From Candidatus Woesearchaeota archaeon (GTDB lineage: Archaea; Nanobdellota; Nanobdellia; Woesearchaeales; 21-14-0-10-32-9): DNA of 64,000 nt. Numbering within the stretch: the first letter of the stretch is position 1; every line of letters begins with the position of its first letter. Below the pieces are notes generated by a model. It ran no database searches. It was not told where the DNA came from and was given only the letters and a program-made list of their open reading frames with translations. The DNA lies in contig JBLKOK010000002.1 in the NCBI GenBank assembly GCA_047602735.1, positions 112,483 to 176,482 of the forward strand, read 5' to 3'. Positions 9,112 to 34,700 of this stretch are shown here, in pieces. Both the position numbers and the translations under genes were made by a program.

Positions 9112-11667
9112 TTATGTTAAAGTCGGTATTCTTGTTTCTAAATTATCTGCATTAGCAGCCAGTACTTCGTATCTGTTTATTACGCTTTGTGCTGCTTCTT
9201 CTCTTGTTATTATACCATCATTGTTTCTATCAAGCCCTCTATTTTGTTGATATGCAATAAGAGGATTTTCTCTATCACAAGCACCTGTTCCGCTGCCGTC
9301 ATTTGTAAACATTATACCTTCTGAATGAACTATAGATTGAGGACAAAGAACAGCAGCGTATGCTTTATCTAGTGTATCTAATTCGCCATAAGTTATTATT
9401 CTTCTCCTAAAATATTCTTCTACGTAATCTAATTGTTCTAATCTGGTCATTTGGGCTAGTTCTTCTACTGTAGTTCCAAGCCATTGCGCAGTGCCGTTCA
9501 TAAATTGAATTAAACCTGTTGCTCCACTAACAGGATTTCTTGTGTCTGGTCTAAATTGTCCTCCTGTTTCAAAGTCCATTATTGCAAGCAGGTGCATTGG
9601 ATCCATGTTTAGTCTCATTGCTATTTCCTCTGTTTTTATGATAAAGCTTTGAGCAGATCCGCTTGTCGGGTCAAATTCTTCTTCTATATCATCAGTTTCT
9701 TCTTCTTGCTCTTGTTCAAGTTCAGGGATAGTAGGAGGTATAATTTCTGAGATTTCTTCTTGTCCAGGTATTTGTATTCCTAAGATATCTTCAAATATTG
9801 ATATAGATGTTCCGTCATAGTATAGTTCTATTGCAAAATTTAAATCAGTTTGCTTATCACAAACAAAGTGATTTATTTGAGGTGCAGTACATGTGTCTAT
9901 CGGGGAGTCTTCGTTGTCTAAATCAAGTAACCAACTAGGATTTAGTAATGAGTCTTTTATTTGAGATGTTGATTTTCCTGTTGCAAACGATACAATATCG
10001 AAATTATCAGATAATAATATGTTTGTTACTAACATGGACGGATTTAAAAATCCAGTTGCTACATCTACAAACGGGATGTTACTAAACAAGTCCACTCCTA
10101 ATACATCATCTACAAATCCTATTATTCCTTGCGAACCAAATATTTCTTGTTCTAGTTCATCTACGAATTCATTTGCTATTTCTTCTAGTTCTTCTTTTGT
10201 TATTATTTTTATTTTTTTCTCAGAGGTTTCTTCTTCAATTAGTAAGTTGAATTCTTCTTCAAATACGAATTCAAATTCTTTTTCTCCATCTAGTTCTAGT
10301 AAGAAATTAACTCTGTATCTGTTATTGTTTATATAAAATTGGTCGTTTATTTGTGATATGTTTGTTTCTTGGTCTACGTTTATGTTACAATAACAATCTT
10401 TTCTTGTTGCTATGCAATCTCTTATGTTTGCTAGTAATTGTAATTCTTGAGTTTCTAGTAAGTAATATATCTTTGATGAGTCTAAGTCTTTTAGTTTTTG
10501 ATATAATAATTGTTCTCCCCTGTTCTTATGTGTTCTTATGTCGTTTAGTTGATCTATTATTTCTTTTTGTTCTTGTATTGGTTCTCTATTTTTGAATCTT
10601 CCTTCACTTACTACGTGTGTATTTGTTTGCATCCAGTTTAGTTGATCTGCACTCCAAAGCCACTCTGATTCAAACTTATAATATATCGGTGTGCTGCCAG
10701 AGTATTCAATTTCAAATATTTCTCTTGGTTGTTTATGTAAACATAATTCATAATCATTTTGTGATAATACTGATTCTAAACTAGTAGTTATAGGGCTATT
10801 TGTTTGTTGTACTAATATTCTTGCTCTCTCAAATGTTTGAAGAGGCGAATCAAAAGTTATTGATTTTTGATATTTCGCTGAGTGGTCTCCTATGCTTGGA
10901 GTTACTCCCTGCGTTAATTGTTCAGCTATTGAAAGGTCTTCATCTAATAAAAATACTAACGGGGTTTGTCCACTTATTCCAGCCGCCATCGCTTCGTCTC
11001 TTGCAGCTCTTCCAACTCCGGCGTATATATCTATTTTTGGTTGACCTCTAAACGCAGAGCCTGTATCCTCTGCTTTGTATATTCCGTTCCAAGGATGATT
11101 TTGAGAGAAATATAAGTAAACATAGGTTTCATAAGGTATGTGACCTGGAGTGTTTGGTATTGGATTTACTGCTATCGTCCATTTTGGTCTAGGATCTGTT
11201 TGTCTACTTGTTATACCACTTGTAAATTTTGTATCAAGTGCTACGCTATCTGCTTGTGTTGGTCTTAGTTGACTGTGGTAAAAAACCGAGTTTTCACAAA
11301 CTCCACTTCCTTGACATTTTATTTCTTCATATACTCCTCTATGTTCTTCAGGTATGCAGCACCATCCTGCTCTTCTGTCTTCAACGCAGCTTCTGACATT
11401 GTAATTATCTCCGTAGTAGTCTACTATTTGTCTTGTAGTTTCAAAGCAGCTTCCTTTTTCTGGACTACACCAACTAGTTTTGTCTTCGCAGGAAGGAGTA
11501 TAGTAAACTGTTGTTTCAACATTTGTATACGTTGGAGATAAGGAATTTATGTTTCTCTCTATTCTTTGTTCTGCTATTCTTATTTGAACTTCATCATCAC
11601 TATATACTACAGGAGATATTATTATAACTGAGAGGATTATTGTTAGTAAAATTATTTTTTTTATCAT
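9112..11667 (-). CDS. Secreted multidomain murein hydrolase: 3D/DPBB (MltA-like) domain + long linker + lysozyme-like lytic transglycosylase domain + EF-hand loop
   Basis: Signal peptide MIKKIILLTIILSVIIISPVVYS; the ATG at 11667 forms an ATGA overlap with the amidase stop. 3D-domain motif, nt about 11017-11517: TVYYTP..IAVNP..GIYKAEDTGSAFRGQPKIDIYAG. Lysozyme-like domain, nt about 9115-9645: MDFETGGQF..SGATGLIQFMNGTAQWLG..QLDYVEEYF. Canonical EF-hand loop DRNNDGIITREE at 9196-9231. Confidence 0.75.
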   Translation of the reverse strand: MIKKIILLTIILSVIIISPVVYSDDEVQIRIAEQRIERNINSLSPTYTNVETTVYYTPSCEDKTSWCSPEKGSCFETTRQIVDYYGDNYNVRSCVEDRRAGWCCIPEEHRGVYEEIKCQGSGVCENSVFYHSQLRPTQADSVALDTKFTSGITSRQTDPRPKWTIAVNPIPNTPGHIPYETYVYLYFSQNHPWNGIYKAEDTGSAFRGQPKIDIYAGVGRAARDEAMAAGISGQTPLVFLLDEDLSIAEQLTQGVTPSIGDHSAKYQKSITFDSPLQTFERARILVQQTNSPITTSLESVLSQNDYELCLHKQPREIFEIEYSGSTPIYYKFESEWLWSADQLNWMQTNTHVVSEGRFKNREPIQEQKEIIDQLNDIRTHKNRGEQLLYQKLKDLDSSKIYYLLETQELQLLANIRDCIATRKDCYCNINVDQETNISQINDQFYINNNRYRVNFLLELDGEKEFEFVFEEEFNLLIEEETSEKKIKIITKEELEEIANEFVDELEQEIFGSQGIIGFVDDVLGVDLFSNIPFVDVATGFLNPSMLVTNILLSDNFDIVSFATGKSTSQIKDSLLNPSWLLDLDNEDSPIDTCTAPQINHFVCDKQTDLNFAIELYYDGTSISIFEDILGIQIPGQEEISEIIPPTIPELEQEQEEETDDIEEEFDPTSGSAQSFIIKTEEIAMRLNMDPMHLLAIMDFETGGQFRPDTRNPVSGATGLIQFMNGTAQWLGTTVEELAQMTRLEQLDYVEEYFRRRIITYGELDTLDKAYAAVLCPQSIVHSEGIMFTNDGSGTGACDRENPLIAYQQNRGLDRNNDGIITREEAAQSVINRYEVLAANADNLETRIPTLT

Positions 11668-12779
11668 GCTAACGGAATCCTCCTTTGTAGTCCACTCATA
11701 ACTTCGTCCCAAGGAAACGCAGGTCCCGGATCTGGTTTATCAGTTGTTCTTTCATCATGTCCAACTATGTGTTCTCTACTTAAAGGTATAGATGGGTGTC
11801 TTGACATTATTTCTGATATTAGTTGAATTGTTGCATCAATTTGTTCTTGTGTATAAGGCTCCCAACACAATTTTCTAGATTCTCTAACATGTGATAATTT
11901 TTCAGCTTCAGGACAAGTTTGTTCTGTTCCCCACCCCATATTAACTAAAGATATTCCAATAGAATTAGGATTCATATTAGTACATATTATAGGAGGATTT
12001 TTTCCTACACATCCTGCATGCAGAGCCATTCTATGTTCTTCTACGAATTGAAAAATAGTTCCATCTTTATCAACTATGTAATGATAAGAAAAACCTTGAT
12101 CATATAGATAATTAAACGGACTTTCAACATTTCTGGATCCTGTATAATGTATAACTATTGAATCCACGACGTTAGTTCCTCTGTTTCTATGTGCAAGTCC
12201 TGGTCTAAATATATAATTATTTTGAGTTTCTCTATAAAATTCTGTTCTTGGTATAGGTGTGTGAACAACCCCATAATAATCCACCGTATCTGTTTTTATA
12301 GGCGCAGTTATTTCTTGATCTAATTCTATTTCTATATTAAATTCTTCGTCTACTTCTACTATTACGTCTTTTTGTGCTAAGTTAACAGGATCATATCTTT
12401 GAAGCTCAGTTGATACCCCTATAGTTACAATCTCAGAATAAGTTTCTCTGTAATCTGGAAAACAATCTTCTTTTATTATTGGAACTGCTAAATTCTCGCA
12501 TTCTTCTCCAAAGATTTGTCCTTCAAATTCAGCAATGTTAAATCCTCTTCTTTCAACTAGTTCTTGTTCTGCGACCGGTAAGGTTTGTTCTACAGTCATA
12601 TCCGTAAATACTTTTGCTGCTTGTACTTGTTCTTGTGTTGCTATTGCTTTTACTGTTGATTGTCCAACTAATTCTACATCAGGTAAGTTCATATTAATTA
12701 TTACTATTACAGCTCCAATCGAGATTAAGAGTGCTAGTGCAAAAAATCCAAATTCTATTTTTTGTGCTTTTTTATTCAT
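11664..12779 (-). CDS. N-acetylmuramoyl-L-alanine amidase (Amidase_2/PGRP fold) with a class III (prepilin-like) N-terminus
   Basis: N-terminus MNKKAQKIEFGFFALALLISIGAVIVII. The C-terminal domain (nt about 11700-12182) has VDSIVIHYTGS, ALHAG, NSIGISLVN and HIVGHDE..KPDPGPAFPW, the zinc-amidase signature of the T7-lysozyme/AmiD family. Confidence 0.8.
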   Translation of the reverse strand: MNKKAQKIEFGFFALALLISIGAVIVIINMNLPDVELVGQSTVKAIATQEQVQAAKVFTDMTVEQTLPVAEQELVERRGFNIAEFEGQIFGEECENLAVPIIKEDCFPDYRETYSEIVTIGVSTELQRYDPVNLAQKDVIVEVDEEFNIEIELDQEITAPIKTDTVDYYGVVHTPIPRTEFYRETQNNYIFRPGLAHRNRGTNVVDSIVIHYTGSRNVESPFNYLYDQGFSYHYIVDKDGTIFQFVEEHRMALHAGCVGKNPPIICTNMNPNSIGISLVNMGWGTEQTCPEAEKLSHVRESRKLCWEPYTQEQIDATIQLISEIMSRHPSIPLSREHIVGHDERTTDKPDPGPAFPWDEVMSGLQRRIPLA

Positions 12780-13243
12780 CTTCTTAGTGGTTTTAAATCA
12801 AAGTCCTCTTCTTTTAGTATTTTTATTTTTACTCTAAGATCTGTTCCTCTTGGGTTTGGAACTAGTAAGTCTGGAAGTATTACATCTAAATTTCTAAGAG
12901 CTCTCGAATCTACATTCGTATGTCCGTTAATATATATGTACCAGGTTGTTCCAGGATTATTTTCTGTTAGTACCTTGTTTGCGTTTTCTATTGCTCTTTG
13001 TACTCCGTGAGTGTTGTAATCATCTAGCATTTGTTGATATATTTGTTTGTCTTCGTATTGTTGTGTTAGTACTGTTCTCGTTTGATATTTTGTTTCAAGT
13101 AGCGCTCTGTGAGTGTTAAATTCTTGTTCTTTTTTATCTCCGTGACTAGAAACTATGAAGCTTAATATAAATCCAAGTATTATGATAAGTCCAATAAATA
13201 TAAATCCTGCCATAAAATCTATGGCTATTGCTCTTTTGTTCAT
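12776..13243 (-). CDS. Type IV pilin-like protein (class III signal peptide), function unknown
   Basis: 155 aa, N-terminus MNKRAIAIDFMAGFIFIGLIIILGFIL. ATGA overlaps on both sides. Confidence 0.6.
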   Translation of the reverse strand: MNKRAIAIDFMAGFIFIGLIIILGFILSFIVSSHGDKKEQEFNTHRALLETKYQTRTVLTQQYEDKQIYQQMLDDYNTHGVQRAIENANKVLTENNPGTTWYIYINGHTNVDSRALRNLDVILPDLLVPNPRGTDLRVKIKILKEEDFDLKPLRR

Positions 13244-13704
13244 CTTAAATGGGTTATCCTCATCACTGTTGGTCTTTGTTCATGTACATTTACTGGTACA
13301 AGATTTACTTCTATTACTTGTCTTTGTCTTAGTTGATTTACGTTATCTGTTCTAAATATCTTTGTTTCATTTTCTAAGTCTATTAGTATTTCAACTCCTC
13401 TTTCTTGTGCTGTTAGTAAAGGAAGGCATGCTCTAAATCTTTCTTCTGCTAATTTATTTGGATCTATTGTTCCAGCTATAACTCTTCCCGCGTCGTTTTG
13501 GTATGCAAAACAATTTTCTGAGTTTAAAAGCCTGTTTTGATATATCTGAGTTTCTAAGTCTGGAAATATTCCTGCAGCAGAATCTTCTATTGCGTTGCTT
13601 ATGTTTGCTAAGAAAAAGAAATATATCATTAAGAAGGGTACTATTATAATTATAAAAAATGCTATGTGATCTAAGAGTCCTATGCTAAATCCTTTTTTGT
13701 TCAT
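13240..13704 (-). CDS. Type IV pilin-like protein (class III signal peptide), function unknown
   Basis: 154 aa, N-terminus MNKKGFSIGLLDHIAFFIIIIVPFLMIYFFF. 4-nt overlaps on both sides. Confidence 0.6.
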   Translation of the reverse strand: MNKKGFSIGLLDHIAFFIIIIVPFLMIYFFFLANISNAIEDSAAGIFPDLETQIYQNRLLNSENCFAYQNDAGRVIAGTIDPNKLAEERFRACLPLLTAQERGVEILIDLENETKIFRTDNVNQLRQRQVIEVNLVPVNVHEQRPTVMRITHLR

Positions 13705-14450
13705 GGTAACATTCCTCTAATCGCATTTATTATTGGTTCTGGGTCATCTTCTTTTACCATAACTCTTAGATTTCTTTGATCTGTTGGTATTAGTTCAAAT
13801 TCTTCTCCTTGTTCTATTATATTACATGCTAGTCTTCTGTGTCTTAGTGATGAGTCTGAATTAAAGTATTCTACTGAATTAACATCTCCTTTTACTACTT
13901 GTATCTCTATTAGTCTATCTTCTGAATCAGTTATTGATATATGCCTTGTAGATTCAGCTAATTCTTGTACTGCGCTTGCTATTTCTGGCAGATCTATTGA
14001 AGATATTCTTGGTCTTAAAAAAACTGTGTTTTCTGTGTATCTTAAATCGCATCCTTCGGTTATTTCTTCAAAGAATAAAAGATTTCCTTGTTTTCTTATA
14101 GGTATGCTTTTTCTATTTACAACATTTGCTTCTAGGGTTTCTACTCCCCCCATTCTAAGGTATCTGTATGTGGATGAGCCTGTGTTTCCATAAACTGTTA
14201 CTATTGATTCTCTTATTGTTATTCTTAGCTCATCTGATCTTGGTACATATACTATGTCTACGTCTCCTGGCATTCCTACCACGGTTGCAAGTGCTAGTCC
14301 TAGGTCTCTTGCTACTACTCTTTCAAGTGTGTTTTCTTCTAGTTGAGATACGACGTTCCAGGTTCCTAGCGCTATTACTAGTCCTATGATTAATCCAGAA
14401 CCTACTAATAATAATTGAAAACTACTATCTTCACCCATTTTTTTTAGCAA
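13701..14450 (-). CDS. Probable pilin-like / N-terminally anchored secreted protein
   Basis: 249 aa. N-terminus M(L)KKMGEDSSFQLLLVGSGLIIGLVIALG from the TTG at 14450. An alternative ATG at 14438 would remove the basic leader. Confidence 0.5.
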   Translation of the reverse strand: MLKKMGEDSSFQLLLVGSGLIIGLVIALGTWNVVSQLEENTLERVVARDLGLALATVVGMPGDVDIVYVPRSDELRITIRESIVTVYGNTGSSTYRYLRMGGVETLEANVVNRKSIPIRKQGNLLFFEEITEGCDLRYTENTVFLRPRISSIDLPEIASAVQELAESTRHISITDSEDRLIEIQVVKGDVNSVEYFNSDSSLRHRRLACNIIEQGEEFELIPTDQRNLRVMVKEDDPEPIINAIRGMLP

Positions 14451-15196
14451 CTACCTTTAAAACATAGCTGTATTACGTTTGGGTCTTGTACCTTTTTAAC
14501 TTTTACGCTTACAGGTCCGTCTATGATTAAGCTTTGATAACCAGATATTATAGGAATTATGCTTGCTCCAAGTTCCATTGTGTTTTGAACAAAAGATACA
14601 TGCACAGTATCTGATGATTGTCTATTGCTTCTTAAAAGTATTGCGCTGTTAATCCAATAATGATCTTCCCTGTTACTAAAAAGGTTATTATTAGGATCTG
14701 GATCCTCAAATATTTCCGACATAGATACTCTTAAAGGAACTGAATACTCTACATCTTGACAAATAAGATTTGAACATCTTATTTCACCTATATTATTTGG
14801 AGGAAATGCTCCCGATGGGTCAAATCCCGTACAAAGACACGTACAAGTAGTTAGTTGTCCACATTCACTAGGTCTTTGCATTATGTTTCCTCTAAGCCAC
14901 GTATTTCCAGATTCATAACCTCCAGATATACTATATGAAGGATTTTCATATTTAAAATCAGCCATAGCATTAAAAGTTATTAGCGCTGTGTTTTGCGGTA
15001 TTTCAAATACTTGTTCTTGTTCTTCTCCTACTTCAAGTTTTGCTACTTCTTCTAAGAACGTGTTATATTCTTGCAATAAAACATTATCTGAATTATCTAA
15101 TAGGTTAGATACGAAGTTAAAAGTCAATATTACACAAGCTATAAAGATTATTAATCCCATACCTTGTGTTAATAGTGTACTTGATCCTTTCTTCAT
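14444..15196 (-). CDS. Type IV pilin-like protein with a Cys-rich globular domain
   Basis: 250 aa, N-terminus MKKGSSTLLTQGMGLIIFIACVILTF. Cys cluster ECGQLTTCTCLCTG..IRCSNLICQD. Confidence 0.6.
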   Translation of the reverse strand: MKKGSSTLLTQGMGLIIFIACVILTFNFVSNLLDNSDNVLLQEYNTFLEEVAKLEVGEEQEQVFEIPQNTALITFNAMADFKYENPSYSISGGYESGNTWLRGNIMQRPSECGQLTTCTCLCTGFDPSGAFPPNNIGEIRCSNLICQDVEYSVPLRVSMSEIFEDPDPNNNLFSNREDHYWINSAILLRSNRQSSDTVHVSFVQNTMELGASIIPIISGYQSLIIDGPVSVKVKKVQDPNVIQLCFKGSC

Positions 15197-15200
15197 TTTT

Positions 15201-15560
15201 TTATGTTCTTGATGCTAGGAATTGTATACATTGAGTTCTTGTATAATAGCATGCGTCTTGATCTCTATCATACTTAAATCCAAATTGGTTTTCACATGGA
15301 GCTGCTTCGAGATTTGCTCTACAATAAACAGTTCCATCTATTTGTACTCGTGTATTATCATCACTACATGGACAAGGATTGTCTCCTTCTACTCCAGCCC
15401 CTATGTTTTGGAGCCATTTATCTGCGATGACGCCTATGTCTTCTATTCCTTGGTCTGATCTTTGGTATAATTGCCAAGCTATAAGTAGTAAAAGTAATGT
15501 GATAACTATAGCTATAACTGTTCCCCACGTACTTGTTTGTCCTTTTTTGTTTTTCATCAT
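15201..15560 (-). CDS. Small type IV pilin-like protein with a 6-Cys domain
   Basis: Start reassigned to the ATG at 15560, giving MMKNKKGQTSTWGTVIAIVITLLLLLIAW. The track start at 15614 overlaps the upstream gene. The C-terminal part has six Cys (PCPC..YC..PC..AC..QC). Confidence 0.6.
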   Translation of the reverse strand: MMKNKKGQTSTWGTVIAIVITLLLLLIAWQLYQRSDQGIEDIGVIADKWLQNIGAGVEGDNPCPCSDDNTRVQIDGTVYCRANLEAAPCENQFGFKYDRDQDACYYTRTQCIQFLASRT

Positions 15561-15576: not shown

Positions 15577-16392
15577 TCAACTAATACATTTAAAATCATC
15601 ATATAATCTTTCAAGTCTTAATGGAGGAGATCTTGCTCCATCAACACAGTTTGCTGTAAGCATACCATCGCTTGTTTGACATATTGATCTTCCTAATCCA
15701 AACAAACCTGTTCTTGGAGCTACAGGTATTACACATAATGTGTCATCTACTTTTAAGAAATATAAATGATTGTTTTCTTCTATGTTTCTAATTCTTATTG
15801 GATCTTGTTGAGTTGATGAAGTCATAACGAAATGAATATTGTTATCTGACGATCTTAGTCTCCTCCTATTATCATTTACTGAGAATTCTATTGTTGAAAC
15901 TGTTTGAGGAGAAGTCACGCTTTGGAAACTGTTAACCTGTGTGTTTCCTTGTATTATATCTCTTAGTTGTTCTACTTGTTCTATTTCGTGAAGATTACAA
16001 AGTCTTACTCCTCTACCAATTTCAGATAAAGTTAGTGCTGCTGAGCCTGACTTTGGAAGTACTTCTATCCTGGTTGTTTGACCTTGTGATGTAAATCTTA
16101 TGTTGTTTGATTCAAACATCTGTTTTGTAAACATATCTATTCTATGAAGACAATTTTGATTAGATTGCATTATTTCTCCAAGTTCTGAAGCTATTTTTGA
16201 AGATTGTTGAGCTAATGTTATTGTTTGAGTTATTGTTGAGTCTGACCTACTGTCTCTGTCTTCTAAGTTAAATATCCTATCTATTTGATGTGTTGTAAAA
16301 TCAAATAATGATCCTGTGTAAAAGTGTATGAATAATAGTAGTGCTAGTAATAATAATATTATTTTTGTAAGCATACTCATTGATTGAGTCAT
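15577..16392 (-). CDS. N-terminally anchored extracytoplasmic protein, function unknown
   Basis: The ATG at 16392 (MTQSMSMLTKIILLLLALLLFIHFY) forms an ATGA overlap with the upstream micro-ORF. Hydrophobic anchor, but no clear [KR][GA] prepilin site. Confidence 0.55.
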   Translation of the reverse strand: MTQSMSMLTKIILLLLALLLFIHFYTGSLFDFTTHQIDRIFNLEDRDSRSDSTITQTITLAQQSSKIASELGEIMQSNQNCLHRIDMFTKQMFESNNIRFTSQGQTTRIEVLPKSGSAALTLSEIGRGVRLCNLHEIEQVEQLRDIIQGNTQVNSFQSVTSPQTVSTIEFSVNDNRRRLRSSDNNIHFVMTSSTQQDPIRIRNIEENNHLYFLKVDDTLCVIPVAPRTGLFGLGRSICQTSDGMLTANCVDGARSPPLRLERLYDDFKCIS

Positions 16393-16529
16393 AATAACAA
16401 CCCCCAAGTAGATAATATGTTACCATGTATTTGTCTTATCACTATTGCTATAACTATTAAGAATATTACTAATAGAAGTATCTTTAGAAGTCGTGATGTT
16501 AACATTGCGTTTTTTATTTTTTTTATCAT
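16389..16529 (-). CDS. 46-aa single-pass membrane micro-protein (below the ORF-track cut-off)
   Basis: Own translation: MIKKIKNAMLTSRLLKILLLVIFLIVIAIVIRQIHGNILSTWGLLL. Its stop TGA overlaps the next ATG (ATGA). Same strand as the cluster. Confidence 0.45.
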   Translation of the reverse strand: MIKKIKNAMLTSRLLKILLLVIFLIVIAIVIRQIHGNILSTWGLLL

Positions 16530-16566: not shown

Positions 16567-18021
16567 TTAGTTATATATTGTACATTCTCCTGATAAAGCA
16601 TTTATGGGCATAACCATTAAACTATTATTATAATTATACATATCATACAAATATTCATTCGCAGTTTTTTGAACAAAAAAACCTGCAGCCGCTCCCCCAA
16701 CTGCTCCAATAACAAATCCTCCTAAAGAACAAATAGGAGTAGCAACTGAAGTTACAACTGCTGAAAGACATCCAAGTGTTACTGCCCCTGAAGTAGCTGT
16801 AGCCCATTGGAGACTAGTTTGAAATACATTAGACCATCTGTTTATATTCTCTCCTTTAGTAGAAAATATTGCTATTGCATAAGTATAATTTGAATATATA
16901 TCATCAATTGTTGGAGGAGGAGCTTGAATTCTGTTTGTTAAATAATTAAAATAAGAGTTCCTTGATATTCCAAGTTCTGCTAATAAGTCTGAGTCTTCTC
17001 CTACAAATCTATTTTCTAAATCTTCTATAAAATCTGATACTGCTTCGTTAAATTCTTCTATGCTTCTCATATTTGAAAAATGCATTTGTAATAAGTTTGG
17101 TATTTGTTCTTCTAATATGAATCTTTCAAGTTCTAATCCTGCATGAAGTCTTACAACCCCGTTTTTCATATCAAACATTATTAGTAAAGAATTAAACCTG
17201 TCCTCTTCGTTTAAGTTTAGTTGTTCTGTTAATCTTCTTGCAGCAGTTCTGTCAATATTATTAAATTCTTGTGCTGTTACTAAAAAGAAATCTGCTCCTG
17301 TTGCAGTATTTAGATTTATTGCAAAGTCATTTATTTTTATTCTTGTTTCTTGTGATAAAAATCCTGCGTAGTCTTGTATAAATGGAGATCCAGCGTCTCT
17401 TGTAACTTGACTATATCTTAGTCTTGCATCATCTGAAAATATAAATTCGTAATGATTCCATTGATAGCTCCCACCTATATATCTTTGTGTTCCTCCACCA
17501 TATAATACCCCTCGATTATAGTCTGTTTCTATTATAAATCCTAATATTTCAGAAGCAGAAATAATATGAGGTTGTCTACTATAAGTGTTATCAGCAGCAA
17601 ATTGATCTCCCTCTATTTGATAAAAATCTCCTCCTGTATCCATGTTATTTGGTATTCTAAATGTATAACAAATTTTACACATATTACTATCTTCGTCATG
17701 ATCGGAAAATATATTGTCTACTCTTCCTTCAGCATACATATACCAACACTTTGACATTAGGTCTGCTACTTGATATTTTACTTGTTCTCTGTTTCCTCTA
17801 AGAGTTCCTTCATTAAATGTATTACAAACAAGAGGAGTAATTCTTTCTACTTTACCAAATAAACCAAGATCTACTACTGCTTGAGTTCTAAGTAACACAC
17901 TAGCTCTACAGGTATCTTCTGTTGCTTTTCCTAAAAGTCCTTGATACATCATAGTTATAGTAACTAGCAGTATTACTGAAACGATTACGGCTATGATTAA
18001 TTTTCCTAGTGTACTTTCCAT
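16567..18021 (-). CDS. Membrane protein with a central TPM-like domain and a Gly-rich C-terminal TM region
   Basis: 484 aa with an N-terminal TM (KLIIAVIVSVILLVTITMMY). The segment DYAGFLSQETRIKINDFAINLNTATGADFFLVTAQ..NSLLIMFDMKNGVVRLHAGLELE resembles the TPM (YgcG/TLP18.3) domain. C-terminal hydrophobic Gly-rich helices (GGFVIGAVGGAAAGFFV). Confidence 0.5.
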   Translation of the reverse strand: MESTLGKLIIAVIVSVILLVTITMMYQGLLGKATEDTCRASVLLRTQAVVDLGLFGKVERITPLVCNTFNEGTLRGNREQVKYQVADLMSKCWYMYAEGRVDNIFSDHDEDSNMCKICYTFRIPNNMDTGGDFYQIEGDQFAADNTYSRQPHIISASEILGFIIETDYNRGVLYGGGTQRYIGGSYQWNHYEFIFSDDARLRYSQVTRDAGSPFIQDYAGFLSQETRIKINDFAINLNTATGADFFLVTAQEFNNIDRTAARRLTEQLNLNEEDRFNSLLIMFDMKNGVVRLHAGLELERFILEEQIPNLLQMHFSNMRSIEEFNEAVSDFIEDLENRFVGEDSDLLAELGISRNSYFNYLTNRIQAPPPTIDDIYSNYTYAIAIFSTKGENINRWSNVFQTSLQWATATSGAVTLGCLSAVVTSVATPICSLGGFVIGAVGGAAAGFFVQKTANEYLYDMYNYNNSLMVMPINALSGECTIYN

Positions 18022-18179: not shown

Positions 18180-19331
18180 TTAAATAATCTCACAAGTTTC
18201 TAACCTTTGAGCATTTAAACCACTTACAGGTTCATCATTAATATGAGATACTAAACAAAGACCAGTAGGTTCTATAAGCGTAGTTCCAACAGTACCCCTA
18301 CTCCAATTATTTAAAGTATAATAATAAGACCAAGTTAAATTATTATCAACCCCTGGATTTACATCAGTAGTTTGTATTTGAGATTGACAATTATACTCAT
18401 ATGTAAAAAAATCAGGACCTCTCATAACTTGATTTATTTGACAATTAGCAATAGGAACCTCATTACCAGACGATTTGTTATACCATTGAGCTAAAGCCAT
18501 ACACGCCACGAACTGAGGATTAGAGTCACTACAAAAAGAATCTTTCCTTTGGCTATCAGAAGATTCACTTGTTAAACTAGATACTGGAGGAATAGTATCC
18601 TCACCAGAAGCAGACCCAGATTCTTCAATTAAATAAAACACAGTTCTAGAACGTAGCTCTTCTGAAGGCTCAAGAATATCTACAGTGACTCTTGCTCTTG
18701 GAGTTTCAATAATATTTCTTAATTCAGTATAAGTTACTTCAAAAGGACTATGTATATTAGAATCACACCCCTCAAATTTAGATAAAACAACATTATATTC
18801 GGGAAACATCACAGGTCCACTTATTTCTTCAACAGTCATATTACACAAAGCAAATCTAGGCGAACTAACTTGTACACGAATGTACCCTCCTATCTGATTG
18901 CCCAATATACTTAACTCCATATTATTAGCTAAATCGATCCTCCTATCAAGATGAGGATGATAACTAAAAATACTATGTTGTAAAGGCTCTCTTGTTACTT
19001 GTTCTTCTTCAGTTTCGTTTTGTTGACCAGTTTGATTACCAATTTCACCAGTAAGATCACTTTCTGACCTGTTTTCTCTGTTTCTTAAGTCTTCTGGAGT
19101 TACACAACAAACTTGATCTCTTCTTTCAGCTTGTCCTGGTAATAAACAAGTACTTGCATATTGCATCTCTGCTGGAAAATTACAACTAGACCTACATGTT
19201 CCAGGACATGTTTCTATGTTAGTTCTTGCATTATCTACATATCTATAAAGTACAAGAACGCTTATACCTAATATAACTAAAACAATTATTATTTTAAGAA
19301 CCTGTGACCAAGTATTTGCTTTTTTGTTCAT
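18180..19331 (-). CDS. Type IV pilin-like protein: prepilin N-terminus + 6-Cys knot + about 300 aa extension
   Basis: 383 aa, N-terminus MNKKANTWSQVLKIIIVLVILGISVLVLY, then ETCPGTCRSSC..STC..QVCC. This is the same C..C..C..C..CC pattern as the three mini-pilins downstream. Confidence 0.6.
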   Translation of the reverse strand: MNKKANTWSQVLKIIIVLVILGISVLVLYRYVDNARTNIETCPGTCRSSCNFPAEMQYASTCLLPGQAERRDQVCCVTPEDLRNRENRSESDLTGEIGNQTGQQNETEEEQVTREPLQHSIFSYHPHLDRRIDLANNMELSILGNQIGGYIRVQVSSPRFALCNMTVEEISGPVMFPEYNVVLSKFEGCDSNIHSPFEVTYTELRNIIETPRARVTVDILEPSEELRSRTVFYLIEESGSASGEDTIPPVSSLTSESSDSQRKDSFCSDSNPQFVACMALAQWYNKSSGNEVPIANCQINQVMRGPDFFTYEYNCQSQIQTTDVNPGVDNNLTWSYYYTLNNWSRGTVGTTLIEPTGLCLVSHINDEPVSGLNAQRLETCEII

Positions 19332-19341: not shown

Positions 19342-19599
19342 CTATGTGTCTCGCCTCATAAGACAACATACATCTCCTTGAACATTGCATCTAGCCCCCG
19401 AGTTTACTATTCCTTGAACGTCATCACATGCTTGACGAGACATACAATCAGCATCGGTATTATCTCCTAAGCTTTCACAAGTAGTGCTTCTTACTAGTCC
19501 GTCTGTTGATCTAAATACAAATACTGTTAGAATTACTAAAACCAGCATAGCTATTGCTGCCATAACCACAATGTTTATACTAAGTTCTGCTTTTTTCAT
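19342..19599 (-). CDS. Mini type IV pilin-like protein with a 6-Cys knot (paralog 3 of 3)
   Basis: 85 aa: MKKAELSINIVVMAAIAMLVLVILTVFVFRSTDGL.. then TTC..ADC..QAC..ARC..VCC. Confidence 0.65.
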   Translation of the reverse strand: MKKAELSINIVVMAAIAMLVLVILTVFVFRSTDGLVRSTTCESLGDNTDADCMSRQACDDVQGIVNSGARCNVQGDVCCLMRRDT

Positions 19600-19612
19600 T
19601 TATATTTCACCA

Positions 19613-19897
19613 TTAATTTGAAGTGTTTCCAATTAATCTAGCATGAGGTCTACAACAAACAAAACCAGATTGTGAACACAAATCCGCTCCATTACCACCA
19701 CCAATTGTCGATCCATCATCAGTGCGACATTGAGTATTTAAAACACATGATCCTCCTTGTCTAAGACAATCAGTTTCTGTTCTAAAAGAATCAGACGTGT
19801 TGAAGAATACAAATATCATTATTACAAGTATTAAGAGTCCTATAATTATAAGTACAATCATAGATATGCTTATTTCTGCTTTTTTATTTATTTTCAT
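19613..19897 (-). CDS. Mini type IV pilin-like protein with a 6-Cys knot (paralog 2 of 3)
   Basis: 94 aa: MKINKKAEISISMIVLIIIGLLILVIMIFVFF.. then TDC..GSC..TQC..DLC..VCC. Confidence 0.65.
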   Translation of the reverse strand: MKINKKAEISISMIVLIIIGLLILVIMIFVFFNTSDSFRTETDCLRQGGSCVLNTQCRTDDGSTIGGGNGADLCSQSGFVCCRPHARLIGNTSN

Positions 19898-19907
19898 TTT
19901 TTAAATA

Positions 19908-20186
19908 TTAACTGCTGCTATCTGGAATCATACAACAACGCTGATTCGATTCAGGACATGCCGCTGTAGGATGAATAAGACCATTTTGAGCTCTACAAGA
20001 CTGTCTTCCAGCATCAGTGTTATCTACACATTGAACCATTATATTTTGGCCAAGTCCATCATTACAAGTAGTTGCTCTCCTTAATCCATCTGATGATCTG
20101 AATACAAAAACTGTTAAAATTACGAGAACAAGCATTGCAATAGCTGCCATGACGACAACGTTTATGCTTATTTCACCTTTTTTCAT
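19908..20186 (-). CDS. Mini type IV pilin-like protein with a 6-Cys knot (paralog 1 of 3)
   Basis: 92 aa: MKKGEISINVVVMAAIAMLVLVILTVFVFRSSDGL.. then TTC..VQC..QSC..AAC..RCC. The N-terminal 35 aa are nearly identical to the 19342-19599 product. GGAGGT lies 8 nt upstream of the ATG. Confidence 0.65.
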   Translation of the reverse strand: MKKGEISINVVVMAAIAMLVLVILTVFVFRSSDGLRRATTCNDGLGQNIMVQCVDNTDAGRQSCRAQNGLIHPTAACPESNQRCCMIPDSSS

Positions 20187-20241: not shown

Positions 20242-20739
20242 CTATATGCACAGTCTTAAAAGCATTCTTGCTTGACTAAGACTTAATGGTATGGGCTGTG
20301 TTCTTGTGGTAAATAGTTGTTGTGAGTCACAGTTTCTTTCTATATTTGTTATATTTGGACCTCCTATTATTTCTATTACTATGTTATATCTATAGTTGAA
20401 TTTTCCTAGTGTGTCGTTTGCTACTTTTTCTATTGTTTTGTTTAAATATTCGCAAACAGAGTCGTCGTCGTTACACATAAAGTTTGGTTGTCTTACACAT
20501 ATATTTATTAATTCGTTTATTTTTAAGTGATTTTGATTTGCATTTTTACAGTCTGTGCTTGATTCCATTAAAACCGGTCCGAAGTTTGAAGGTATATTTT
20601 CATCTAAGAATTCTTCTACTGCATCTACTCGCTCTTCTGCGTCTCTTACTGTAAATACTGCTATGAATAAGAATACTACTGCTAGTACTGCTATTATTAG
20701 TACTAGTCCTATCATTTCCATTTGTGCTTTTTTTACCAT
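20242..20739 (-). CDS. Type IV pilin-like protein (class III signal peptide)
   Basis: 165 aa, N-terminus MVKKAQMEMIGLVLIIAVLAVVFLFIAV. Confidence 0.6.
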   Translation of the reverse strand: MVKKAQMEMIGLVLIIAVLAVVFLFIAVFTVRDAEERVDAVEEFLDENIPSNFGPVLMESSTDCKNANQNHLKINELINICVRQPNFMCNDDDSVCEYLNKTIEKVANDTLGKFNYRYNIVIEIIGGPNITNIERNCDSQQLFTTRTQPIPLSLSQARMLLRLCI

Positions 20740-21209
20740 AGCGTCACTACCTCTAATAATGCGAAGTGATATACATCTTCTAAAGGATCATTTACTAATA
20801 AAGGTATTTGAATCGGTGTTCTTGATGAAGCATTTTCGTTTGTTGGTGTTGCAATAGATATTACATCAGATGTATGGCTTGGATTTATTATATGTAATGT
20901 TATATTTGTGTTTCCAAAACGCTCCACTTTATACGAAGGGTTTTGTTCTAGATATTTAGCAAATGCTTTTGCTTTGTATAAATCTATACATCTTTCTACT
21001 GCTGTTTGTCTTCTTGTACATCTAAGTTCAGGTAGATTTCCTAGTTGGCTTGCTATTGCAAGTGCTGAGAGTTCTAATCTTTCTTGTGCTTGTCTTGGTA
21101 TTTCATCTCTTTGAAAATTTGATGCAATTATCAATCCAAATATTATTATTATGCTAAGTATTATTAGCACCATTATTGTTTCTGCGCTTTGTATTTGTGC
21201 TTTTTTCAT
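20733..21209 (-). CDS. Type IV pilin-like protein (class III signal peptide)
   Basis: 158 aa, N-terminus MKKAQIQSAETIMVLIILSIIIIFGLII (resembles the Q-x-S-x-E class III motif). Confidence 0.6.
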   Translation of the reverse strand: MKKAQIQSAETIMVLIILSIIIIFGLIIASNFQRDEIPRQAQERLELSALAIASQLGNLPELRCTRRQTAVERCIDLYKAKAFAKYLEQNPSYKVERFGNTNITLHIINPSHTSDVISIATPTNENASSRTPIQIPLLVNDPLEDVYHFALLEVVTLW

Positions 21210-21218
21210 TTTTTTTAT

Positions 21219-22142
21219 CTAATATATTGTCGGGCATCCCAGTCTTTCTAATTCTCTGTTTCTTTGATCTAACTCAATTGATTTTGTCCTAAATGTTGGT
21301 AAGTCTAAATTAAAATCTAAATCTATATTAGTATTGTTATATAGAGATTGGCAGTTTGCTGAGAGTTTGTCTGATATGTTGTCTTTTCTTTCTGATAAGA
21401 CGAATTTCATTCTTTCAAAGCTTTGATTTATTTTTTGAAAATTACAATTTGCTAACTCGTATTCTCCTGTAATTATTGCTCCTAGTGCCATTTCTTGTGA
21501 GAAAAAATTAAGCGAGTTGCCGTCATCAAATATTATTTGTCCATTTGAAGTGTTTATTTTTATTACATCTATGTTTTGCGTTGAAGTACTCGAATCTGTT
21601 GGAGTCGTAACATACACTACTTTTCTATGATCTCTTGCTGCAATTTCTGCATCAGAATACCCTCCTATAGATTTTGAGAATATACTTGGTAACCAGTTAT
21701 GATAGCTTGTAAGAGCAGAGTTAAATACGTAGTGAGTGTTTGTATCAGTTAGTAGGAGTGTTGATGTTGTTAAAAAAGGAAGGTTTTCTCTCAGAGTCAA
21801 TGTTGCTAGCTGTGAGTTTCCTATTATTCTTGGCGTGAATACTATTGAGTTTTCTAGGTATTGCGAAGACGAACTTCTTATTTGTCTAAATTCGTGTACT
21901 CCTTCTCTGCAACTAAATTCTAGTTCGTAATTTGCTCTTTGGTGGAGTTGTGCTGTGTTTGGGTTTGATTGTATTGATTCGAATATATTTGACATTCTCT
22001 CAGTTATTGTTTTTGCTAAATCTTCTTGGCTTGATTCTGTTCGATTGTTTATTAGCATAATAAAAAACATCATTATTGCAAATCCTGCTATTAAAACAAA
22101 TATCCAATTAAAACTTACTTCTACTTGTGCTTTTTTATTCAT
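21219..22142 (-). CDS. Type IV pilin-like protein (class III signal peptide)
   Basis: 307 aa, N-terminus MNKKAQVEVSFNWIFVLIAGFAIMMFFIML. Confidence 0.6.
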   Translation of the reverse strand: MNKKAQVEVSFNWIFVLIAGFAIMMFFIMLINNRTESSQEDLAKTITERMSNIFESIQSNPNTAQLHQRANYELEFSCREGVHEFRQIRSSSSQYLENSIVFTPRIIGNSQLATLTLRENLPFLTTSTLLLTDTNTHYVFNSALTSYHNWLPSIFSKSIGGYSDAEIAARDHRKVVYVTTPTDSSTSTQNIDVIKINTSNGQIIFDDGNSLNFFSQEMALGAIITGEYELANCNFQKINQSFERMKFVLSERKDNISDKLSANCQSLYNNTNIDLDFNLDLPTFRTKSIELDQRNRELERLGCPTIY

Positions 22143-22600
22143 GGGAGAGAAACGCTTACTTTTCCTTGTCCTATTCCTTCTAATCTAAATACGAATCTTC
22201 CTGCTGTTGAGTTTATACACAATTGCTCTGGAGGGCGTTCTATAGATGGATTTTGAAATAGTGGTTCCATAAATCTTCCTTGTCTTAAAAAGACGTTTTC
22301 TGCTTCAGCAGTCATACTTGCATCTATTACAGGATCAGGATTTTCTCCTGGTGGTCCTCCAAAGCATATTTGATCGTAGTTACAAGGCGCTCTTAGATTT
22401 ATTTCTTGTACGAATCCAAATCTTGTGTTTCTTTCTATGTCTGACCCTAATTGTGTTTTGAATCTTTCATATTCTACTTGGCATCCTTGTCCCATTATGT
22501 TAGATACTGATCTAAATCCTATTATTAACATTGCTCCAACTACTATTATCACCATTATGTATATGAATACTTGTTGTGTTTGTGCTTTTTTAGTCATCAT
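22139..22600 (-). CDS. Type IV pilin-like protein (class III signal peptide)
   Basis: 153 aa, N-terminus MMTKKAQTQQVFIYIMVIIVVGAMLIIGF. Its start overlaps the 3' end of the 3026-aa gene. Confidence 0.6.
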   Translation of the reverse strand: MMTKKAQTQQVFIYIMVIIVVGAMLIIGFRSVSNIMGQGCQVEYERFKTQLGSDIERNTRFGFVQEINLRAPCNYDQICFGGPPGENPDPVIDASMTAEAENVFLRQGRFMEPLFQNPSIERPPEQLCINSTAGRFVFRLEGIGQGKVSVSLP

Positions 22601-31761: not shown

Positions 31762-34700
31762 CTAACCTTTAGACGGAGTTACAAAACCCGTTTGATGAAC
31801 CCAATTAGTTCTAGTTATGCCAGGTATATTCCTATACGATACAGGAGGATGGGTGTCTCTTTCTATTCCACTTCCCCAACATCCATGGGCTCCTTCCCTT
31901 ATACCAATATAATTTCCTTGCCAATCTTGATTATTAAGCTCATAGAACGCGCCATGTTCAGGAGTTTGATGGTCTTGTCCTGGCTCTATTAAAGATATTT
32001 GTAATTTTCCTGAATTTGAATAACTCAAACTAAGTCCTCCTTGACCCCCAACAGGAATATTTTGATCGTGTCTTGGGAAAGCAGTATAGTCTGTGAAACA
32101 AAAGTTAAATCCAAATCTTGACAACATATATCCTGTTCCATAATCAGGATTTAATAAATTTGCAGCAGTTAATTCTCTAAAATCAATGTCTTGATCTCTT
32201 GGAAATATTTTATAATGGAAAAACCCATAACCATCACCTACATGATTATTATTCCTTACTTGGCTTTCCACGAAATCTATTGATGTTAAAGGATATGGTA
32301 CATTTACTAATATTCCTCTATTCTCTCCTACACTTACATCCCAATCATCTGGGTTGTTAAAGTTTTTAGTAGCTAAATTAATTGTTCTGCCATTCAATAT
32401 TATATCTACAGGTACAGTGTCAGGGAACACACTTGGATTTCTAAGGAATAAAACTAGTACTTCAACTTCTTCACTTACAGGTGTTGTAGGTAAAGGTCTT
32501 CCAGAAGCTCCAGTTCTAAAATTAGTAGGTTGTGATGTTCTAGTGGCCGCAGGAGCATTAGTTACGTAAGGATTCCATAAGGTTAATATTAAGTTTGTTA
32601 AAAGTCCACCCGAGACTTCAACCACGTGATCAAACGTTGCACTTCTTATATCTAATTCAGGTAATAAATTAATCGTTACTGATCTTATTTCTTCATAATT
32701 ATTAGCAGGATCAACAGAATAATAATTTATAGTCATAGTACCTGGAGCCTCAAAGTTTTCTTGTAATCTTTGTTTAAATTCTTGCTCATTCAAAGAAGGA
32801 TAAACATTATTACCTATTGAAAAAAAGGTTTGTATTTCTGAATCTTCATACATATTATCTAGTACTTGTACGTTTATTGTTTTTAGTTGTTCAAGAGAAT
32901 AGTATCTTCCCCCTCTTAGCTCTTCAACATCCATATCATATAAGTATCCTTGTGTTTTGACAGTAATTATTGTTTGTGGCGGTTCAAAATCGGTGAGGCA
33001 TCTTAAATCGTTTCGTCTATCAGAACAATCTGCTATACTGTTTACTTGAGGAATGTTGTTATTGTTATATGAAAATGTTTCGTTATGCATACTATTTGAA
33101 TCTTTTACACACAAACCAGGTATATTTCCACTAGGATAATCTAACCAAACACAAGTACCCTCTATAGCATTGTTTGGAGGATTCAAAACTTCGTGTTCTC
33201 CACCAACATTGTTACCTTGTTCGTCGTATTCTATGTCTATCAAAAAATTAGATCCTCCTGCACCTAAGCATTCTTCTTCTGTTTTAAAAAATTCACATAT
33301 TACTTGATCTCTATTTAAACAAGAGCCGTCATTAACATCTAAGTAGTCTCTATTTAATGGATGTAAATCATCCGTGCTAAAAAAAGTACAATGTTCACTT
33401 GAAAAAGCAAGACATACTTCTTCTGAACAACCAAGCGGATGATCTTGACATGAGTTACAATCTAAATCCTCTAAATCAAACGTATATGTACAAACACCTA
33501 TTCCTGTATCACTATCTAAATTATTCCACTCACAATCTTGCGCCATTTGAACCCCACAAGGATTGCCAATACATGTATCTTGTGTTAAATAACTATGACA
33601 ATTTCTAACAGCACTACATTCTTTTGATTCACCAACAGCAGAGAAAGATCTAGAGAAATCTTCTTTGTAACAAATTCCTTGATCAAATAATAGCCCACAA
33701 TCACTAATAGCGTTGTTTGTCCAAGTAAATAGTCCAAAAACTCCTCCACATTTATCACATGTGACTGTTGTTTCAGGTATACATCTTGCTTGACCTCTAA
33801 AGTCAGGACCTACACACCTATCACACTGAACTATTGTTGGTTGGCCATCATTACAAGTTACAAGTCCATCTTCAGAACAAAAACTATTTCCGTCAGGAAT
33901 ATTTCTACAAAGAGGATTAATAACATTCAAGCATTCTTGTTGAGACCTTATAGGTCTTCCATTTGATAATTGCGCAGTTACAGTATAACAAATTCTACCT
34001 GTATCTGTTTGAGGTACAGATTCATCCGTATAAGTATTCCTATTTGCTCCAAAGTTCCACTCTGTAGGAGCTGGTGAATTACGTCTTACTGTAAATCCGT
34101 TACGAGCACAAGCAGGACTAATCTCCCAGTTTAGTATAACTCCGTCATTATTTGGTGTATATTCTAGTCTAAGTCTTATATCTCCATCTGTACATTCCTC
34201 CCTACAAGCAGGAGAGTTAGCACACCCCGGACAATCTTCACACATATTTGAAGTACACCCAAGAATATTATCAGGACAATCAAAACAGTTTGGTACAAAT
34301 TGACATTCATTATAACAATTTAGTTCTCCACCCGCGCTGTATCCTAAAGCTGCACAACTATCTGCTCCAAAAAATGATTGGCCATTAACTATAAGACACT
34401 CATCGAGAGCTAAATTATTTGGGTCTGAAGGACAATTATTAGATTCTGGTTCTTGTGGAGGAACACATTGGCCATCTGGATTACAAATAAAACCTCCTGG
34501 GCAATCAAAATCACTCTGACACGGCCCTGTCTCTTCTGGAGGATCAACGCACTTATCATCTTCACAGCGATACTCACAAGGCACAGTTGTTTGATATATA
34601 GAAGGTTCAGAACATTGAGCATTTATACAAACACTTTGAGTTCTTAATGTTGTAAGATAATATTCACCATCACAAAAAATAGTTGTTGTATCCTCACACT

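Follow-up and report, generated by a model that had tools for sequence, protein, structure and literature searches.

A zinc amidase with a predicted prepilin-type N terminus encoded in a pilin-like operon of a Candidatus Woesearchaeota archaeon

The sugar-binding proteins of Sulfolobus have class III signals, retain the N-terminal helix, and are thought to be assembled by pilus-like machinery; experiments have demonstrated their processing and their dependence on assembly genes (PMC3387779). Modular pilins of bacteria include PilB (with a vWA module) and PilC (with a lectin module) of Streptococcus sanguinis, and more than 1,200 examples, some with peptidase modules, are found in InterPro (PMC8179133). 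The Kil (Tad) pilus of Myxococcus xanthus has interchangeable minor-pilin tips and serves contact-dependent killing (PMC12075869). Secreted archaeal peptidoglycan hydrolases that kill bacteria are known from Halogranum (Woldo and Danwoldo; PMC12352652), and a 2025 survey of such hydrolases in archaea took only Sec and Tat signals into account (PMC12352652). Large extracellular murein transglycosylases were reported in Woesearchaeota and Pacearchaeota (fam00969; Castelle 2021, PMC8204110), and GH23 was reported in "vampiristic" metagenome-assembled genomes (MAGs; Vigneron 2022, PMC9723730). Here, we describe a predicted N-acetylmuramoyl-L-alanine amidase of a Candidatus Woesearchaeota archaeon (GenBank assembly GCA_047602735.1), the N terminus of which resembles a class III signal. 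Its gene is located in a pilin-like operon on contig JBLKOK010000002.1, in a stretch of 64,000 nucleotides (nt; positions 112,483 to 176,482 of the forward strand), which was analyzed as a whole and is named the window below. All coordinates are those of the window unless a locus is given.

An earlier, sequence-only reading of the window had proposed a zinc amidase with a prepilin-type N terminus. The open reading frame (ORF) was found exactly where this reading had placed it, and every motif that it quoted was present: IVIHYTGS (H211), ALHAG (H254), and GHDE..KPDPGP (H341, K348, and D350). The features of the gene and its catalytic domain are as follows.

11664..12779, minus strand: pilin-like N-acetylmuramoyl-L-alanine amidase gene (371 amino acids [aa], ATG start, TGA stop)
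11721..12173, minus strand: Amidase_2 catalytic domain, aa 203-353 (Pfam, PDB sequence matches, Foldseek, PHROG)
11730..12149, minus strand: active-site codons H211 (12147-12149), Y232 (12084-12086), H341 (11757-11759), K348 (11736-11738), and D350 (11730-11732)

Pfam Amidase_2 (PF01510) matched aa 203-353 with 100.2 bits (cut-off 26) and E=1.4e-28. Inspection of the codons confirmed a zinc triad of H211, H341, and D350, accompanied by Y232 and K348. In the alignment, H211, H341, K348, and D350 are invariant among the nine closest homologues, and they correspond to the H..H..K.D zinc-binding and catalytic positions of AmpDh2, which was matched by the family profile (E=6e-25) together with the solved structures of AmiD and AmpDh3. 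A Foldseek search with the predicted structure (see below) retrieved AmpD, AmiD, AmpDh3, phage endolysins, XlyA, and PGRPs (probability 1.00, E values from 5e-9 to 1e-3), and PHROG amidase/endolysin families also matched the catalytic domain. The earlier assignment to the T7-lysozyme/PGRP fold was thus borne out by Pfam, by the sequence matches to AmpDh2 and AmiD, and by Foldseek. Judged from these matches, the window protein is a complete Amidase_2 enzyme of the AmpD/AmiD/endolysin/PGRP fold, with an intact active site.

Two covarying catalytic flavors were detected in the family. In the first, Tyr (SYHY) is combined with Ser or Ala at the position of the Glu in the AmpD motif "sIGIE" (25 of 25); in the second, Val, Ala, or Ile is combined with Glu (SIGIE; 12 of 13). 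The roles of the catalytic residues are known for T7 lysozyme, AmpD, and PGRP-LB, with Tyr in the T7/PGRP type and Glu in the AmpD type. The window amidase is of the Tyr type (Y232 with S277), the arrangement of T7 lysozyme (Tyr46) and PGRP-LB (Tyr78). The zinc triad, Tyr, and Lys are intact and invariant in this protein and the nine homologues closest to it, which argues for catalysis. Beyond the active site, the Amidase_2 domain contains four near-invariant Cys residues, and the module preceding it contains two more; these residues would suit an extracytoplasmic protein.

The N terminus of the amidase reads MNKKAQKIEFGFFALALLISIGAVIVII and was divided into two features.

12765..12779, minus strand: predicted class III leader, aa 1-5 (MNKKA; K at -2, A at -1; putative prepilin-peptidase site after Ala5)
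12687..12764, minus strand: hydrophobic N-terminal helix, aa 6-31 (QKIEFGFFALALLISIGAVIVIINMN; Gln at +1, Glu at +4)

Archaeal sites of signal peptidase (SPase) III depend on the residues at -2, -1, and +1, and a basic residue at -2 is peculiar to archaea (PMC3387779). The amidase leader follows this rule, being charged and short, with K at -2 and A at -1. Right after the putative site (MNKKA/QKIEF; a slash in a sequence marks a putative cleavage site) comes a hydrophobic stretch of approximately 25 uncharged residues, as in class III proteins, and an SPase I-like site was not seen after it. The pattern of Gln at +1 with a nearby acidic residue is akin to that of the EppA substrates of Methanococcus maripaludis, which have a Gly at the end of a 5-13-aa leader, followed by Gln at +1 and a Glu nearby (PMC3875500). 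Other exported proteins of the window have Sec signals with short h-regions and the ends VYS, ISA, TTS, and VAA (MIKKIILLTIILSVIIISPVVYS/DD, ...LVLTLPAQISA/QP, ...FTLPITTS/QP, and ...FIAFSTPVAA/DD, respectively), and one has a lipobox (LVAC). Thus, the prepilin-type N terminus is specific for the operon and is not the generic export signal of this organism.

All six frames of the window were scanned for a short leader, K/R followed by G/A, and then at least 14 uncharged residues. The scan yielded 15 ORFs: 12 within 11664-22600, all on the minus strand, one at 35389..38583, and two weaker ones elsewhere; no match in the 64 kb fell in a spurious frame. The clustering of class III-like N termini at the operon is far above chance. 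The ORF at 35389..38583 (minus strand) encodes a protein of 1064 aa, which starts with MKKRG/QVAIFALLG, contains no Pfam domain, and has a weak match to positions 1-86 of the profile of the amidase N-module (E=1e-5; see below).

The amidase and the genes upstream of it are arranged in an operon with the following further ORFs.

12776..13243, minus strand: pilin-like ORF, 155 aa (MNKRA/IAIDF...)
13240..13704, minus strand: pilin-like ORF, 154 aa (MNKKG/FSIGLL...)
13701..14450, minus strand: probable pilin-like ORF, 249 aa (..KKMG/EDSSFQLLLVGSG; KRG/D in the L002 orthologue)
14444..15196, minus strand: pilin-like ORF, 250 aa (MKKG/SSTLL...)
15201..15560, minus strand: pilin-like ORF, 119 aa (MMKNKKG/QTSTW...)
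15577..16407, minus strand: operon ORF, 276 aa, with an N-terminal hydrophobic segment and no K-[GA] motif
16567..18021, minus strand: operon ORF, 484 aa, with a TPM domain (Pfam TPM_phosphatase, E=6e-11) and hydrophobic N and C termini
18180..19331, minus strand: pilin-like ORF, 383 aa (MNKKA/NTWSQ...)
19342..20186, minus strand: three tandem small pilin-like paralogues, 85, 94, and 92 aa (KKA/E or KKG/E), with Cys-rich C termini
20242..22600, minus strand: four further pilin-like ORFs, 165, 158, 307, and 153 aa (all ..KKA/Q...)

Of the 16 tightly packed minus-strand genes from 22600 down to 11664, 13-14 encode proteins beginning with M-x(0-6)-K/R-K/R-G/A and then a long run of uncharged residues. 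Their N termini include MKKA/ELSINIVV, MKINKKA/EISISMIV, MKKG/EISINVV, MVKKA/QMEMIG, MKKA/QIQSAE, MNKKA/QVEVSF, MMTKKA/QTQQVF, MNKKA/NTWSQV, MKNKKG/QTSTWG, MKKG/SSTLL, MNKKG/FSIGLL, and MNKRA/IAIDF. A profile built from the first 180 residues of the amidase family matched nearly all other pilin-like ORFs of the operon and of the colinear operons of relatives at its positions 1-35, in agreement with the earlier remark that the amidase N terminus has the same form as those of the surrounding genes. The globular part of the profile matched the amidase family alone. Sets of type IV pilins typically look like this, with a common N-terminal helix and unrelated heads.

The start codon of the amidase gene overlaps the stop codon of the upstream pilin-like gene (ATGA). 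The order of the 17 genes is conserved: all are colinear in a 320-kb Joint Genome Institute contig (L001), flanks included, and most are colinear in L002-L004, L008, L011, and L012, with identities down to approximately 25-30%. The TPM-domain ORF is kept in L001, L002, L008, and L011. The three small Cys-rich paralogues are conserved in L001 and L002 and are candidate major filament subunits; the major pilin of M. maripaludis has a comparable size of 74 aa (PMC3875500).

Directly downstream of the amidase, a second wall hydrolase is encoded.

9112..11667, minus strand: exported wall hydrolase, 851 aa, with a Sec-type signal (MIKKIILLTIILSVIIISPVVYS), a 3D domain (10990-11145), and a lytic transglycosylase domain (9181-9651)

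The ATG of this partner gene overlaps the TGA of the amidase gene (ATGA), and a GGAGG is located 8-10 nt upstream. An alternative TTG start, giving a partner of 866 aa, was rejected in favor of the ATG at 11667, which has the ATGA overlap, the upstream GGAGG, and a signal peptide at the N terminus. The 3D domain was recognized by Pfam (E=6e-7), and the partner also had a weak match to Pfam SLT. The C-terminal domain matched the lytic transglycosidase PDB 9udh (E=1.8e-29), and the transglycosylase domain matched PHROG 196, "baseplate hub" (E=1e-32), and PHROG 4928. Lytic domains of this baseplate-hub type are borne by virions and used by phages for piercing walls from outside. By domain, export signal, and lineage, the partner most likely belongs with the large extracellular transglycosylases of Woesearchaeota and Pacearchaeota (fam00969 type).

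In many relatives, amidase and partner form one prepilin-type polypeptide of 800-1400 aa. Fused forms with the arrangements amidase-3D-... and amidase-SLT-... were found, as was one with an M23-like module plus SLT. These fusions are a Rosetta-stone link between the two predicted activities. In approximately 10 relatives, most of them fused to 3D, the second His and the K.D motif are lost, and some also lack the first His (P0033, P0034, P0037, P0038, P0039, P0042, P0043, P0048, P0051, and P0058). The fused relatives with lost ligands are probably inactive, PGRP-like wall binders. Synteny and gene fusions support, at the level of sequence, a link of the amidase to the multi-pilin system and to wall attack.

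A word-indexed search retrieved eight full-length homologues with 27-50% identity, all having M..KK[GA] and a hydrophobic stretch. An exhaustive profile search over 1.84 billion cluster representatives gave 66 matches at E<=1e-30, and approximately 40 further clusters (50% identity) align from profile position 1-3 through the amidase. Amidase_2 with a class III-like N terminus, the combination for which a survey had been suggested, thus recurs in approximately 47 clusters at 50% identity. These counts refer to related sequences and not to independent events. In the 47 representatives (four automatic mis-parses of the site were corrected by eye), the residue at -1 is Gly 37 times, Ala nine times, and Ser once, with K/R at -2 in 45. 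Leaders are 4-37 aa long, and the uncharged stretch that follows the site comprises 20-31 aa (median 25). The residues flanking -2/-1 vary freely, indicating that the dipeptide is under selection. With an uncharged span of 20-31 residues and no conserved small-x-small c-region, the family does not resemble SPase I substrates. An ordinary Sec signal, which the sequence-only reading had named as evidence against its proposal, was found in none of the full-length homologues.

Among species-representative genomes, the full-length architecture occurs only in MAGs labeled Candidatus Woesearchaeota and in third-party annotation (TPA) bins labeled "uncultured Methanosarcinales". The label looks unreliable, because in the scans for both amidase and peptidase these bins cluster with Woesearchaeota loci; full-length members in named genomes carry Woesearchaeota-type labels. 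The TPA "binchicken" bins titled "uncultured Methanosarcinales archaeon" (L006, L011, L012, L022, and many peptidase loci) carry Woesearchaeota-type loci. Amidase_2 proteins of DPANN archaea that do not have the N-module possess other N termini, including plain hydrophobic anchors, and bacterial relatives of the catalytic domain carry lipoboxes. The simplest history would be that an archaeal prepilin-type carrier acquired an amidase of bacterial or phage origin.

Between the hydrophobic helix and the catalytic domain, all members of the amidase family have an additional module of approximately 150 aa.

12210..12686, minus strand: family-specific N-module, aa 32-190 (helices 40-76 and 110-126, two hairpins, near-invariant Cys94 and Cys106)

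An AlphaFold2 (AF2) model was calculated from a 25-sequence alignment (predicted local distance difference test [pLDDT] 79.6, predicted template modeling score [pTM] 0.60) and superseded an earlier 9-sequence model with a pLDDT of 66. It predicts an N-terminal helix at residues 3-31 (block pLDDT 81-96), a low-confidence break at 32-39 with conserved Pro33 and Gly39, a helix at 40-76, a hairpin, a helix at 110-126, two more strands, and then the amidase. The N-module had no Pfam or NCBIfam match, and the profile of the first 180 residues detected no paralogue of it among the operon proteins. When the N-module was used in a word-indexed profile search, the single, weak match was P0172 (253 aa, MNKKA/QIFEKG.., no amidase), and the family's own members were not retrieved.

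Prepilin peptidases of the A24 family were detected in related genomes.

L018 8882..9739 / L087, and L134 3004..3867: archaeal A24 prepilin peptidases in Woesearchaeota-type MAGs

An ORF of a Woesearchaeota MAG matched Peptidase_A24 (E=8e-14) and has archaeal C-terminal domains. In the database, 1465 relatives of it were found at E<=1e-10, many of them named "prepilin peptidase [Candidatus Woesearchaeota archaeon]". They occur in at least 569 species genomes, and the 80 listed are nearly all labeled Woesearchaeota/Nanoarchaeota or "uncultured Methanosarcinales". Assembly CAZMIO01 contains both a family amidase (L022; MKNKKA/D.., Amidase_2 E=2e-27) and an A24 peptidase (L134; E=1.8e-13). According to these sequence matches, the Woesearchaeota-type lineage has an A24 prepilin peptidase. 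At both peptidase loci, the gene adjoins a divergently transcribed upstream gene of approximately 240 aa, which in L134 is undecaprenyl-diphosphate-synthase-like. A recent census placed type IV filament "system 1" in DPANN (bioRxiv 10.64898/2026.04.22.720090).

The reading that we prefer, with a probability of roughly 55%, is that the amidase is a class III-type protein that is cleaved by an A24 peptidase, taken into a type IV filament with the operon products, and opens a bacterial wall together with its partner. We infer the cleavage, the incorporation into a filament, the position in the filament, and the bacterial target. According to this model, the protein would insert with the N terminus in and the C terminus out via the hydrophobic helix of approximately 25 residues. 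The A24 prepilin peptidase would remove MNKKA on the cytoplasmic face, making Gln6 the new N terminus, and the helix would permit uptake by type IV filament machinery encoded elsewhere. The amidase would then be a low-abundance, probably tip-proximal subunit beside the 12-13 other pilin-like products of the operon, with the three 85-94-aa proteins as likely bulk subunits. The exposed amidase would cut the stem peptide from N-acetylmuramic acid in the bacterial wall, the co-translated partner with its 3D and lytic transglycosylase domains would cut the glycan strands, and both would create a local breach in the wall of a bacterial host or prey. That the 17-gene operon specifies a dedicated type IV filament, in which a tip amidase and a baseplate-like transglycosylase act as a "wall drill" on bacterial hosts or prey, is a more tentative proposal.

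Several observations weigh against the filament. In the family, only approximately 38% of the members have an acidic residue at +1 to +7. Pfam and NCBIfam models of pilin and class III N termini gave no match at E<=10 to 45-aa fragments of the amidase and nine neighboring N termini, and we therefore do not claim membership in described pilin families. In the class III signal check, the K/R-G/A-hydrophobic rule holds for the amidase, and the curated N-terminal models are silent. The structure prediction yielded a confident helix (3-31) and the amidase fold, and the module behind the helix has no match to a pilin head: the AF2 model interrupts the N-terminal helix at aa 32-39, and Foldseek against the PDB found neither a pilin-like nor any other fold for the N-module. 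Whole-chain queries were dominated by the amidase domain, and the amidase matches were followed by insignificant helical noise such as PprA, which was rejected as an indication of the fold. Last, a filament ATPase, a platform protein (genes of T2SSE/T2SSF type), and an A24 prepilin peptidase were not found in the 64-kb window or in those flanks of relatives that were covered. Pfam scans of approximately 45 ORFs and motif scans for the Walker A of secretion ATPases and for GxGD of A24 peptidases revealed only an ABC ATPase in the window. In archaea, a distance between pilin genes and their machinery is normal, and the minor pilins of M. maripaludis are spread over several loci (PMC3875500).

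The helix of approximately 25 uncharged residues has transmembrane length and would serve equally well as a plain membrane anchor. The amidase could therefore be a membrane-tethered ecto-enzyme, cleaved at KKA/Q or not, which never polymerizes and acts on an apposed bacterial wall or, as a scavenger, on muropeptide debris. This possibility, which we regard as less probable than the filament, would explain why the assembly machinery was not found in the window, why the N-module has no pilin-head match, and why the curated pilin models gave no match; plain hydrophobic anchors occur in other DPANN Amidase_2 proteins, and the tethered state resembles the pre-assembly state of the Sulfolobus class III sugar-binding proteins. 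However, a plain anchor would not require G/A at -1 (46/47) or K/R at -2 (45/47). It also leaves unexplained the translational coupling in an operon and the 13-14 proteins with a shared N terminus, an arrangement kept down to approximately 25-30% identity, and a membrane-bound enzyme would not easily reach past the surface layer of its producer. A freely secreted bacteriolytic enzyme with an ordinary Sec signal cleaved by SPase I, like the Tat/Sec hydrolases of Halogranum, is very improbable. Peptidoglycan hydrolases with Sec or Tat signals are known from archaea (PMC12352652), and the partner gene has a Sec-type signal; in the amidase family, however, the span is 20-31 aa instead of a short h-region and is not followed by a conserved small-x-small site. 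Moreover, the genuine Sec signals of the window look different, and AF2 gives one confident helix. On account of the long uncharged span, the missing c-region, and the contrast to the Sec signals of the window, we rejected the Sec interpretation.

The filament reading also assumes that the amidase domain cuts bacterial murein. If the domain was instead a PGRP-like receptor, it could fasten the filament or the cell to a bacterial wall, leaving the cutting to the partner. The approximately 10 fused relatives without the second His and the K.D motif would fit such an adhesin, as would the fold, which is common to noncatalytic PGRPs. We consider this role unlikely for the window protein, in which the zinc triad, Tyr, and Lys are intact and, as in its nine closest homologues, invariant. 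The least probable view is that the enzyme works on the envelope of its producer or on another non-murein substrate, or that the locus entered the assembly as contaminating bacterial or phage DNA. The catalytic and lytic transglycosylase domains are indeed most similar to bacterial and phage proteins. Against a contaminating fragment or phage island, which we rejected, stand the archaeal flanks (an RPA-like OB protein and A-type ATPase subunits), the uniform base composition with even GC content, and the synteny of the whole locus and its flanks in independent MAGs, with the flanks conserved in L001. Against a substrate in the own envelope, the Amidase_2, 3D, GH23-like lytic transglycosylase, and M23 modules jointly point to murein, and Woesearchaeota-type lineages are treated as lacking murein (PMC8204110).

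The surroundings of the operon contain further genes for surface proteins. Directly upstream, on the minus strand, giant proteins with Sec signals are encoded at 22590..31670 (3026 aa, with a C-terminal transmembrane segment and a Lys-rich tail), at 31762..35277 (1171 aa), and at 39510..44531 (1673 aa, with a polysaccharide lyase 14 domain at the end). Jointly, they are an extracellular arsenal. Functions of bacterial type are also present in this archaeal window, namely glucose-6-phosphate dehydrogenase and 6-phosphogluconate dehydrogenase (60991..63103, minus strand), DNA gyrase A (47681..50149, plus strand), and a glucose/sorbosone dehydrogenase (53257..54369, minus strand).

Much of archaeal diversity belongs to the DPANN archaea. 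In the case of Woesearchaeota and Pacearchaeota, lone transglycosylase genes have raised the suspicion that they live on bacteria; to our knowledge, a delivery mechanism has not been proposed, and a bacterial host has not been demonstrated. The locus makes this suspicion concrete, with a defined putative cleavage site, 13-14 putative filament subunits, and two (sometimes three) predicted wall hydrolases, which were repeatedly fused by evolution into one prepilin-type polypeptide. The sequences of the operon and the amidase suggest a filament-borne tool against bacterial hosts. If this holds, class III signals as a general archaeal route of surface display would extend to lytic enzymes, and the concept of modular pilins would extend to Archaea. 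Surveys limited to Sec and Tat signals (such as that in PMC12352652) would miss archaeal peptidoglycan hydrolases of the prepilin type. Should the "wall drill" prove true, archaeal episymbiosis with or predation on bacteria would have its first molecular apparatus, and archaeal pili their first enzyme-armed example.

Compared with the described systems, the window amidase shares with the Sulfolobus bindosome the principle of a functional, nonstructural protein with an archaeal prepilin-type signal, and the sequence-only reading had aptly cited this precedent of functional proteins with class III signals. In Sulfolobus, however, the cargo is a solute-binding protein and the organism is a crenarchaeon, whereas the amidase is known from its sequence, and an ATPase or platform protein was not found nearby. 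The EppA-processed Epd pili of M. maripaludis, which belong to type IV filament "system 1", are similar in the short leader, the Gln at +1, the nearby acidic residue, the small major pilins, and the many minor pilins. Unlike in Epd pilins, the acidic residue is at +4 instead of +5, and the Pfam pilin models are silent; an enzyme-bearing Epd pilin has not been described. The Kil pilus likewise has many minor pilins, and its filament is dedicated to attacking bacteria on contact. It is, however, bacterial, its tips expose recognition domains and depend on a partner resembling a type III secretion system, and a peptidoglycan hydrolase domain was not reported in its pilins.

As enzymes, AmpDh2, AmiD, and AmpDh3, which are lipoproteins of Gram-negative bacteria, and the Amidase_2 endolysins of phages have the fold and the zinc triad of the window enzyme. 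They differ in having a lipobox or no signal and in acting on their own wall or that of the phage host, whereas the window enzyme has a prepilin-like anchor and a producer that is not known to make murein. Woldo and Danwoldo of Halogranum are also archaeal enzymes aimed at bacterial murein; in contrast to the amidase, they are soluble, exported by Tat or Sec, and composed of a binding and a catalytic domain. The fam00969-type transglycosylases come from the same lineages and most likely from the same locus, with the transglycosylase in the partner gene or in fused long forms. The words amidase, pili, and pilin are absent from the main text of PMC8204110 and PMC9723730; these papers thus leave the prepilin-type N terminus and the pilin-like operon undiscussed.

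By analogy, the bacterial modular pilins appear to be the concept closest to the window amidase: an N-terminal pilin-type module with a grafted functional module, which in the bacterial proteins is probably presented at the filament tip. The bacterial leaders have Gly before the cleavage site, Phe or Met after it, and Glu at position 5, and crystal structures show a canonical pilin head; the window protein has the archaeal K-[GA] and a head without a fold match. The survey of modular pilins (PMC8179133) covered bacteria only and does not list a peptidoglycan amidase. In the full-text literature searched, the coverage of which is incomplete so that an earlier description is possible, no description of an archaeal peptidoglycan hydrolase of the prepilin type was found. 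The window protein is thus a member of Amidase_2 that follows the theme of class III signals and modular pilins outside any demonstrable described pilin family, in a combination that is apparently undescribed.

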